Positions 37,038 to 37,342 of a stretch of 64,000 nucleotides of DNA are shown piece by piece (the first letter of the stretch is position 1; every line of letters starts with the position of its first letter). Location: contig LBSX01000002.1 in the NCBI GenBank assembly GCA_000990355.1, positions 6,000-69,999 of the forward strand, in the 5' to 3' direction. This DNA is from Candidatus Magasanikbacteria bacterium GW2011_GWC2_37_14. Its GTDB lineage: Bacteria > Patescibacteriota > Patescibacteriia > Magasanikbacterales > UBA922. The position numbers and the translations under genes are program-made. A model generated the notes under the pieces. It ran no database searches, was not told the origin of the DNA, and saw only the letters and a list, made by a program, of their open reading frames with translations.

Positions 37038-37160
37038 ATGGCAGATTGCCCACAATGTGGTATGCCCATGGACGAAGATATTTCTTGTCCAAAGTGCGAT
37101 GCTTGCGATCAGTGTTGTAAATGTTTTGAAGGAGAAGAAACCTTGGAAGAAAATGAATAA
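37038..37160 (+). CDS. 40-aa cysteine-rich zinc-ribbon-like small protein (MADCPQCGMPMDEDISCPKCDACDQCCKCFEGEETLEENE)
   Basis: Two CPxCG/CPKCD knuckles plus a CC-K-C cluster. Followed by its own terminator. Not in the ORF track because it is below the size cutoff. Confidence 0.4.
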   Translation: MADCPQCGMPMDEDISCPKCDACDQCCKCFEGEETLEENE

Positions 37161-37165
37161 AATTC

Positions 37166-37193
37166 AAAACCCGTTTTTTAGGCGGGTTTTGTT
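37166..37193 (+). terminator. Hairpin terminator (AAAACCCG/CGGGTTTT)
   Basis: 8-bp perfect stem with a T-rich 3' side. Confidence 0.45.
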
Positions 37194-37212
37194 ATCCACA
37201 GTTTAAGTGGTC

Positions 37213-37242
37213 TTGACAGTTTTCATACTAAATTAGTATACT
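37213..37242 (+). promoter_or_regulatory. Sigma70-like promoter TTGACA-18-TATACT
   Basis: Consensus -35 at 37213-37218 and -10 at 37237-37242. Confidence 0.45.
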
Positions 37243-37315
37243 ATACTTAGTTTAAGTCACTTTTTAATTATAATTATATGTGTGGTGGATGTTCTTGCTA
37301 AATTAGCCAAAAATA

Positions 37316-37342
37316 TCCCGACTAAGTCGGGATATTTTTTTA
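37316..37342 (+). terminator. Hairpin (ATCCCGAC/GTCGGGAT) followed by T7: terminator or attenuator about 95 nt downstream of the promoter
   Basis: Perfect 8-bp stem plus TATTTTTTT, located 58 nt before the helicase ATG. Confidence 0.45.

Follow-up and report, generated by a model that had tools for sequence, protein, structure and literature searches.

What occupies the interval between atpC and the gene of a helicase-nuclease fusion in the genome of Candidatus Magasanikbacteria, a member of the Candidate Phyla Radiation (CPR, or Patescibacteria): regulatory sequence for the helicase, or genes in their own right? In the 64-kb stretch of this genome that was analyzed, hereafter called the window (all coordinates are window positions and are collected in table 1), the interval contains an open reading frame (ORF) for a 40-aa Cys-rich protein and, downstream of it, a promoter soon followed by an intrinsic terminator, hereafter the micro-unit. 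A first-pass annotation of the same DNA had described both elements and offered two explanations for the second, a small RNA (sRNA) gene or an attenuator-controlled leader of the helicase. All the features that it listed, namely ORF, hairpins and promoter, are present in the sequence; promoter P1 of the Cys-rich ORF, an IscR-type operator and a conserved Cys/Gly ORF at the first AUG of the micro-unit transcript were absent from it. The results of our analysis indicate that the micro-unit is an independent small gene and not an attenuator or leader of the helicase. The broader reading that we favor, and consider moderately probable, is that the locus holds two independent small genes, one for the Cys-rich protein and the other an IscR-controlled micro-unit, neither of which would serve as a helicase leader.

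The micro-unit extends from promoter P2 to terminator T2 and is found in four species, namely that of the window and those of loci L003, L006 and L008, the helicases of which are about 70-76% identical to that of the window. (L-numbers designate the 80 Magasanikbacteria loci that were fetched via their helicase and scanned in six frames for the family survey presented below; the survey of the micro-unit covered about 85 species loci.) The units of L006 and L008 were found by searching for the promoter dyad and for a TTATCCACA box, both of which are discussed below. In 4/4 species the unit lies directly downstream of a Cys-rich ORF, at a distance of 30-330 nt. Hence the near-consensus promoter and the perfect hairpin with T-run marked in the first-pass annotation belong to a genuine and conserved promoter-to-terminator unit. 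The window contains 15 promoter matches as good as P2 or better (11 or more of 12 positions), versus 2.8 ± 2.1 in Markov simulations, an enrichment of about fivefold, and most of them sit just 5' of genes or a tRNA; these matches are thus more than chance. At the other end of the unit, the hairpin of T2 (37309-37339) has a perfect 14-bp stem with a 3-nt loop and ends within a run of seven T (37335-37341), thereby combining the stable hairpin and the U-run of an intrinsic terminator. Its folding energy is -17.8 kcal/mol with a z score of -5.8, and 0/200 shuffled sequences fold as well. The equivalents of T2 in L003 and L008 have stems of unrelated sequence and similar stability (-16.6 and -16.7 kcal/mol, respectively, z below -4.4), and that of L006, judged by eye, is a hairpin followed by a T-run. 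(An automated terminator scan of 36500-37900 listed no terminator-like site, missing both T2 and the hairpin T1 that follows the Cys-rich ORF.)

Locus L003, an 85%-identical relative, keeps the ORF, P2, the transcript, T2, the helicase promoter P3 and the helicase itself. Its identity to the window is 93% in P2, 92% in the core at 37278-37301 and 87% in the Cys-rich ORF, then 70% in the helicase coding sequence, 64% in T2 and 43% in the 5' untranslated region (UTR) of the helicase, so that P2 and the micro-ORF described below are more conserved than the adjoining coding DNA. In L003 and L004 (1-3877) a fusion of the Complex-I 49 kDa and 30 kDa proteins and a proton-antiporter-like gene lie 5' of the block in place of the atp operon, and, judging from this replacement, the ORF, the micro-unit and the helicase have moved as one block. 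(The replacing genes resemble a hydrogenase- or Mrp-like module.) A nhmmer profile of the four micro-units retrieved no further copy in about 630 kb, and no micro-unit was present in the 5' region of the three closer helicase relatives that were read, among which L087 added a type-A ORF.

Evidence for the independence of the unit comes from the genes around it. What follows the micro-unit varies, being the helicase in the window and L003, an uncharacterised 176-aa ORF in L006, and a 586-aa ORF with ABC ATPase motifs (read from the sequence) in L008. Moreover, the helicase has its own promoter, P3, the hexamers and TG of which are identical in L003, with a divergent spacer and downstream 5' UTR. 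A TGnTAnAAT promoter also follows the ORF terminator in relatives that do not have the micro-unit (L013, L015 and L024/L087), and is followed in turn by the next gene. It is because the downstream gene varies and the helicase keeps P3 that we read the micro-unit as a small gene of its own.

P2 contains a dyad with the pattern ATACTN5AGTAT, which occurs twice in the 64 kb of the window versus 0.07 expected copies; 0/100 shuffled sequences reach two copies. The second copy, ATACT-TAGAT-AGTAT, lies in the promoter of the iscR operon, a compact cluster (19164-21705) about 18 kb 5' of the micro-unit in which iscR overlaps the desulfurase gene by 20 nt. Both promoters have an 18-bp spacer, and the dyad begins 4 nt after the -35 element in one and 6 nt after it in the other, in either case covering the spacer/-10 region. 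The half-sites of the P2 dyad are kept in L003, L008 and L006 and its centre varies (AAATT, AGATT, GTAAT), the pattern that a protein-binding dyad would show. There is thus an inverted repeat common to the promoter of a regulator, iscR, and to that of a potential target, P2, as is found for genuine operators. The regulator itself belongs to the Rrf2 family (Pfam Rrf2, 1.6e-28; NCBIfam rrf2_super above its cutoff) and scores 74.8 bits with the NCBIfam IscR equivalog, below the cutoff of 207.6. Its translation combines the Rrf2 fold with a C-x5-C-x5-C-x2-H signature, C93-x5-C99(C100)-x5-C106-x2-H109, the spacing of which is typical of IscR cluster ligands.

The iscR promoter of E. coli, as read from strain MG1655, contains the stretch CGACTAAATCAGTCA, which we take to be IscR site A, and has ACTAAATyAGT in common with P2. 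When ACTAAATTAGT of the window is compared with ACTAAATCAGT of E. coli, 10/11 of the central nucleotides match and the outer positions differ. (The type 1 IscR consensus, a 25-bp motif in E. coli, reportedly goes back to work of Giel and colleagues in 2006.) A conserved inverted repeat is known to mediate the repression of isc promoters by holo-IscR (PMC8593673, PMC4055776). The Rrf2 protein of the window is the predicted repressor of both dyad-bearing promoters, and the micro-unit is consequently a predicted member of the IscR regulon. Searches for other iscR promoters found no Rrf2 gene in the fetched Magasanikbacteria loci, identical strains only in an exact-protein look-up, and 106 unrelated matches in a pattern scan of viral contigs. 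A Fur/Zur/PerR-type 7-1-7 box was also considered at P2 and rejected, just the 5-N5-5 arms being common to the iscR promoter.

In the P2 transcript, the first AUG comes about 28 nt after the predicted start site and opens a micro-ORF for the peptide MCGGCSC, with counterparts MGGGCSC in L003, MNGPGCGC in L006 and MKEKCNRGGGCC in L008. In all four units this AUG lies about 27-41 nt after the -10 element, the same spacing as in bona fide genes here, and its 5' context is AU-rich and devoid of a Shine-Dalgarno sequence, as in other genes of the genome (throughout the window, start codons are preceded by AU-rich tracts essentially without Shine-Dalgarno, e.g. at 10221, 16698, 19220, 35167 and 37038). 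The micro-ORFs comprise 7-12 codons, their frames and TAA stops align in the four species, and every one of them ends in Cys-TAA. Counting from the C-terminus, the Gly at position -4 is always encoded by GGA, position -5 by GGT, GGC, GGA or CCA, and the terminal Cys by TGC or TGT. A regular expression for the C-terminus, applied to six frames in about 650 kb, matched only the three units then known. This pattern favours translation of the micro-ORF; selection on the peptide is unproven because there are several non-synonymous changes and a conserved nucleotide core.

The other gene, upstream of the micro-unit, encodes MADCPQCGMPMDEDISCPKCDACDQCCKCFEGEETLEENE, a protein with 20% Cys in which an N-terminal half with two CPxC knuckles (C4-x2-C7 and C17-x2-C20) is followed by a C-x2-CC-x-C cluster. 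P1 lies directly 5' of it and overlaps the stop codon of atpC. The first-pass annotation had presented the ORF, with its zinc-ribbon-like CxxC knuckles, as unannotated, which does not hold: an identical sequence is already in NCBI as hypothetical protein US42_C0002G0049 of the GW2011_GWC2 genome, and the ORF is also called on JGI and Logan contigs. Because its ratio of non-synonymous to synonymous substitution rates (dN/dS) is 0.10 versus L003 and 0.04, for the core, versus L013, it is a genuine protein-coding gene under purifying selection, with a reading frame conserved across species. As for the terminator that the ORF was said to possess, the T1 hairpin does exist (-14.4 kcal/mol, z -3.7) but departs from an intrinsic terminator in its interrupted U-tract (UUUUGUU) and is not conserved, the equivalent in L003 being unstable (-4.1 kcal/mol, z about 0); T1 is probably a leaky terminator.

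Six-frame scanning of the loci retrieved, 5' of the helicase and on its strand, ~25 ORFs that encode 40-62 aa and contain 8-14 Cys, together with 3 unrelated matches. The family to which the window protein belongs is Magasanikbacteria-wide; its proteins have 40-49 aa and 8-14 Cys, and the Cys share rises up to 31% in relatives of the window protein. The Cys pattern is indeed conserved in these relatives: in the alignment of 20 family ORFs, C7, C23, C26 and C29 are invariant and C4 and C27 nearly so, the common framework being M-x(1-3)-C-x2-C-x(9-11, acidic)-C-x(1-2)-C-x(2-3)-C-x2-CC-x-C, after which comes an acidic tail or a CGCxC cluster. The acidic-tail subtype includes the proteins of the window, L003, L013, L015 (its second ORF, L015b), L024/L087 and L077, ten sequences have the CGCxC C-terminus, and a further C-terminal subtype shows a CC-x3-T-CC variant. 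A Cys-rich small ORF is located 30-582 nt after atpC in 11/20 atpC-containing sources, at 170 nt or less in 10 of them. Family ORFs have their own promoters and terminators in many species, and a terminator-promoter pair often separates atpC from the ORF. Metallothionein-like sequences of the type CDCGPxCxC occupy the same genomic position. (Such peptides, with 45-46 aa and 11 Cys, fill the slot after atpC in L026 [2204-2344] and L050 [2210-2347], and similar ones with 9 and 14 Cys lie 5' of the helicase, without atpC, in L053 [2112-2240] and L034 [2761-2898], respectively; in L015, two different Cys-rich ORFs stand in tandem at 1154-1447.)

Database searches returned very little for this family. 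None of its subtypes has a family match in Pfam, where Zn_ribbon_3 (PF13248) reaches 19.6 bits over residues 1-20 of the window protein versus a cutoff of 27, or any match in NCBIfam. A word-indexed protein search, for which the query was either the single sequence or a profile of 6 sequences, retrieved only the protein itself and one 85%-identical relative; a full HMMER scan of 1.84 billion representatives, only itself and Cys-repeat noise; a metagenome DNA scan for the 40-aa ORF, only the already-known contig. In the PDB, a profile search gave nothing below E 0.3, the weak matches being all zinc ribbons or zinc fingers. Since the protein databases hold only the 40-aa protein and one 85% relative, such ORFs are evidently rarely called. 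From the arrangement of its Cys residues, we infer that the 40-aa protein binds metal via thiolates, most likely zinc, held by the pair of zinc-ribbon knuckles at the N-terminus and by a second Cys4 site, and the more Cys-rich relatives look metallothionein-like. The ORF belongs to an undescribed, lineage-specific family of small Cys-rich proteins that probably bind metal.

Put together, these elements suggest the following model. P1 would drive the 40-aa Cys-rich protein, and P2 would yield a transcript of ~90 nt that ends at the strong terminator T2 and the first AUG of which may be translated into a Cys/Gly micropeptide of 7-12 codons. A Rrf2/IscR protein of the [2Fe-2S] type, in its holo form, would repress P2 together with the iscR promoter as long as iron-sulfur (Fe-S) clusters suffice, and scarcity of the clusters would release both promoters. 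Several points weigh against this model. The micro-unit is present in just 4 of the about 85 species loci examined; the link with IscR consists of two sites in one genome and three orthologous P2 sites, and the resemblance to E. coli is confined to the central 11 nt. For the micro-ORF, four sequences provide 6 aligned codons with at least four non-synonymous versus three synonymous changes, and coding selection is not demonstrable with four sequences; the invariant GGA and the UUGYUAA motif could equally be compatible with constraint at the RNA level and few functional products are, to our knowledge, as short as a 7-residue peptide. With regard to the 40-aa protein, its AlphaFold model is of low confidence (predicted local distance difference test score of 62) and too poor for a fold search, and metal binding is deduced from the Cys pattern, the protein having no significant relative in PDB or Pfam.

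The rival explanation that survives best takes the micro-unit as the gene of a non-coding, trans-acting sRNA, an Fe-S-sparing riboregulator like RyhB or FsrA in its logic, in which the ORF would be incidental; we regard it as rather unlikely, and it preserves the sRNA option of the first-pass annotation. An independent promoter, a strong terminator, a length of ~90 nt and conservation across four species all fit such a gene, as does the metalloregulator-type operator, which agrees with known sRNA logic. The conserved G/U-rich core (GGAUGU..UUGCUAA) just 5' of the small hairpin and T2 also fits, and so does the behaviour of the codons, GGA being nucleotide-invariant in 4/4 species in a peptide the positions of which freely swap C, G, R and S. 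Yet the first AUG, the frame and the Cys-UAA end are kept in all four species even though the start shifts by up to 5 codons, and neither the length of the leader nor its context differs from that of real genes. Nor does the conserved core have a complementary target or a second match in the window, where a RNAduplex scan gave just long AU-rich pairings of doubtful meaning. The unit is also without a match in Rfam (only tRNA-Asn passes in the window, and the best local match, driven by the terminator, is 31 bits versus a cutoff of 60). On balance, a micropeptide appears marginally the likelier product of the micro-unit when set against an RNA riboregulator or a dual function.

The second option of the first-pass annotation, a cis-acting leader or attenuator in which transcription from P2 would conditionally read through T2 into the helicase, e.g. 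by ribosome stalling at the Cys codons, is disfavoured and seems to us improbable. The unit is on the same strand as the helicase, T2 does end 58 nt 5' of the helicase ATG as originally reported, the putative leader ORF has three Cys codons, and weak leader-like matches occur in Rfam (15-24 bits versus cutoffs of 41-60). Many other Magasanikbacteria, moreover, have a -10 element, a hairpin and a U-run directly before the helicase ATG. Fe-S-responsive control would also be plausible for a helicase the nuclease domain of which ends in C-x2-C-x5-C and has another Cys further 5' (C...C-x2-C-x5-C, read from the translation), the Fe-S arrangement of AddB and Cas4. (A Cys/Fe-S theme common to the Cys-rich protein, the micro-ORF with its IscR-type operator and the helicase nuclease is suggestive only.) What decides against the attenuator is that the unit precedes unrelated genes in L006 and L008, that P3, conserved also in relatives without the unit, intervenes between T2 and the helicase, and that no antiterminator is conserved. 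Pairing by hand gave a sole candidate in the window, GGAUGUU:AAUAUCC, which L003 does not keep; RNAalifold applied to the four species produced no conserved alternative pairing, just a weak helix over the stop codon without convincing covariation. The distance from the micro-ORF stop to the T2 stem, 8 nt in the window versus about 32 nt in L008, indicates that coupling of ribosome and terminator is not conserved either, and T2 is very strong. Hence, neither the exclusive antiterminator helix and steady stop-terminator spacing of leader-peptide attenuators nor a conserved downstream operon free of an intervening promoter is found here.

The hairpins preceding the helicase elsewhere form a pattern of their own. 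More than 20 Magasanikbacteria (L014, L018, L021, L022, L030, L031, L035, L038, L040, L041, L044, L045, L052, L054, L057, L059, L060, L063, L067, L069, L071 and L085) have a -10 hexamer before the helicase ATG, followed within 2-6 nt by a 5-8-bp hairpin and a U-run; the stems are species-specific in sequence and lie about 60 nt 5' of the helicase ATG near 3001. They could be 5'-terminal stabilisers, promoter-proximal terminators, or terminators in which an internal start bypasses the 5' arm. The hairpin of L022 (ATATCCCGAT..ATCGGGATAT) is nearly identical to T2 of the window.

An extension of the model would connect the two genes functionally, the Cys-rich protein and the micro-gene forming a minimal thiol module of genome-reduced CPR bacteria in which the ribosomally made micropeptide, under control of IscR and possibly also of the DnaA box and induced by a shortage of Fe-S clusters, would act as a low-molecular-weight thiol or as a ligand or carrier of Fe-S (or metal) clusters, a gene-encoded substitute for small thiols such as glutathione; this we consider quite doubtful. 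Finally, the micro-unit might be a decayed, functionless remnant of a tandem second Cys-rich ORF, given the tandem ORFs of L015 and the likeness of the G/C-rich micro-ORF peptide to the CGCGC-type C-termini of the family, but this is very unlikely because promoter, dyad, TTATCCACA box, ATG, TAA and terminator are all kept in four species, two of which are near saturation at synonymous sites (dS 0.7-1.5), because P2 and the micro-ORF exceed the adjoining coding DNA in conservation versus L003, and because L006 and L008 possess a full Cys-rich ORF in addition to the micro-unit.

Table 1. Coordinates of the small genes between atpC and the helicase gene, of their signals, and of the iscR operon in the 64-kb window
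Feature	Position	Strand	Description
Promoter of the iscR-iscS/nifS-nifU operon	19164-19193	+	TTGACA-18-TATAAT, 12/12 positions; dyad at 19174-19188
Rrf2-family regulator (IscR-like)	19220-19630	+	Pfam Rrf2
Cysteine desulfurase (NifS/IscS)	19611-20927		iscR operon, after the Rrf2 gene
NifU	21025-21705		iscR operon, after the cysteine desulfurase gene
atpC (ATP synthase epsilon subunit)	36549-36980	+	Last gene of the atp operon; usual 5' neighbour of the Cys-rich ORF family
P1, promoter of the Cys-rich ORF	36977-37005	+	TTGACA-17-TATAAT, sigma-70-type, 12/12 positions
Gene of the 40-aa Cys-rich protein	37038-37160	+	8 Cys, acidic C-terminal tail
T1 hairpin	37165-37191	+	3' of the Cys-rich ORF; weak, interrupted U-tract
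TTATCCACA box	37192-37200	+	Perfect DnaA-box consensus; 12 nt 5' of the -35 element of P2
P2, promoter of the micro-unit	37213-37242	+	TTGACA-18-TATACT, 11/12 positions
Dyad ATACT-AAATT-AGTAT	37225-37239	+	Predicted Rrf2/IscR operator; overlaps spacer and -10 element of P2
Micro-ORF	37278-37301	+	ATG TGT GGT GGA TGT TCT TGC TAA (MCGGCSC)
Second CTAAATTAG palindrome / small GCUA/UAGC hairpin	37298-37306	+	Overlaps the stop codon of the micro-ORF
T2, intrinsic terminator of the micro-unit	37309-37341	+	14-bp stem, UAA loop, U7
P3, helicase promoter	37343-37371	+	TTGCCT-17-TAGAAT with extended -10 TG, 9/12 positions (promoter scan)
UvrD/PcrA-type helicase fused to PD-(D/E)XK (Cas4/AddB-like) nuclease	37400-40384	+	3' neighbour, outside the micro-unit

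The genes flanking the two small units are readily recognized. Pfam domains ATP-synt_DE_N and ATP-synt_DE are on record for a gene identical to atpC (JGI contigs), and the helicase matches UvrD-helicase (1e-79), UvrD_C (1e-48), PDDEXK_1 (3e-35) and Cas4 (1e-9) in Pfam, as well as a PcrA-like model of NCBIfam below its equivalog cutoff. The TTATCCACA box of table 1 is the sole exact copy in the window; each of the four micro-units has the box 2-12 nt 5' of its -35 element (at 4130 in L003, 2245 in L006 and 895 in L008). It also appears just 5' of promoter-like sites of other genes, at L013 853, L015 435, L079 1259 (minus strand) and L056 2847, and totals 17 copies in about 630 kb versus roughly 8 expected; DnaA or another transcription factor may recognise it as a recurrent site. 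A replication origin at this locus was rejected, the single box being without a cluster and the GC skew following the gene strand with no switch at 37 kb. The sequence CTAANTTAG has 4 copies in the 64 kb, two of them 70 nt apart at the micro-unit. An antisense promoter, TTAGCA-17-TATAAT (37301 to 37273), was likewise discarded, since it is conserved in L003 and not in L006 or L008.

Other observations concern the surroundings. In L008, a GC-richer segment of ~300 nt (560-880) separates the Cys-rich ORF from the micro-unit. A long and very stable hairpin (-36 kcal/mol) opens this segment, which contains on the minus strand a 61-aa ORF (836-651) with a perfect GGAGG Shine-Dalgarno sequence, unusual for these genomes, and may be an insertion. 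Terminator-like hairpins often adjoin the next start codon in the window, e.g. before 21930, 24843 and 34171. On the minus strand of the window (9990-10153), tRNA-Asn (9937-9865) is preceded at about 190 nt by a promoter of perfect consensus (10153-10125). Between the two lies a GC-rich block of roughly 100 nt, the first 18 nt of which (TTTATATTCGGGAGTAGC) duplicate the tRNA's 5' flank and 5' end. This block matches nothing in Rfam and folds no more stably than shuffled sequences (z +0.6); a decayed duplicate of the tRNA and an unrecognised RNA are two possibilities.

Two elements of the locus appear to be new, namely the P2 dyad in common with the iscR operon promoter and the conserved 7-12-codon ORF at the first AUG. 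Gene regulation is almost unknown in the CPR bacteria, which are uncultivated and have tiny genomes; the Rrf2/IscR operator predicted for the Fe-S assembly operon and one other promoter amounts to a concrete prediction of a regulon. If control by IscR is true, a new small effector would be tied to Fe-S status in organisms whose regulatory repertoires are minimal. The micro-ORF may be among the shortest conserved ORFs of bacteria that a defined sensor controls; alternatively, the P2 transcript could be the first candidate Fe-S-responsive riboregulator in the CPR. The very small Cys-rich family has been largely missed by gene callers and databases, with 2 clusters among 5.8 billion sequences versus the ~25 members found in six frames.

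How do the two genes compare with known systems? The Cys-rich protein is reminiscent of zinc-ribbon small proteins (Zn_ribbon_3 and archaeal CPxCG micro-proteins such as HVO_2753), which also have 40-60 aa and paired CPxC(G) knuckles, and Zn_ribbon_3 is its sole Pfam match, in line with the nature of the weak PDB matches. It differs from them in the sub-cutoff score, in four more invariant or nearly invariant Cys (C-x2-CC-x-C), in the acidic tail or CGCxC cluster added according to subtype, and in the restriction of the family to Magasanikbacteria in our protein searches. With metallothioneins (SmtA/BmtA and eukaryotic forms) the family has in common small size, 20-31% Cys, CxC, CC and CxxC motifs and few aromatic residues, and its type-D relatives (CDCGPxCxC) give a faint match to Metallothio_5 (E 0.39); however, it lacks significant similarity to any metallothionein family, and the window protein has a knuckle pattern with an acidic tail instead of a continuous Cys-X-Cys array. 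The micro-unit, for its part, resembles leader-peptide attenuators such as trpL, hisL and pheL in having a short ORF rich in the codons of one amino acid, an intrinsic terminator and a same-strand gene 3' of it, but departs from them in the absence of a conserved antiterminator or downstream gene, in the intervening promoter and in the variable stop-terminator spacing.

The predicted control of the micro-unit is closest to the type 1 promoters of E. coli IscR (iscRSUA, erpA and nfuA). As in these, the isc operon of the regulator itself has an inverted repeat in its core promoter, with the central ACT-rwwwy-AGT in common, and the window regulator possesses the C-x5-C-x5-C-x2-H motif. The differences are that the flanks are ATACT/AGTAT in the window versus what is said to be a longer 25-bp consensus in E. 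coli, that the regulator falls short of the NCBIfam IscR equivalog, and that the second predicted target is a micro-gene and not a gene of Fe-S assembly. Several sRNAs and small proteins are controlled by metalloregulators, as in the systems Fur-RyhB, Fur-FsrA with the FbpA/B/C peptides, and MntR-MntS. In the last system the product, MntS, is a small protein (PMC4361602). The micro-unit has in common with these systems a short, terminator-bounded transcript and a promoter with the operator, here predicted, of a metal or cofactor sensor, and its product may likewise be a riboregulator, a small protein or both. Unlike them, its sensor would be IscR and not Fur or MntR, its ORF has just 7-12 codons, and it shows no sequence similarity to any of them in Rfam scans. 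Thus, the micro-unit belongs to no described family and would seem to resemble, in its logic, the metalloregulator-controlled genes of sRNAs and small proteins.

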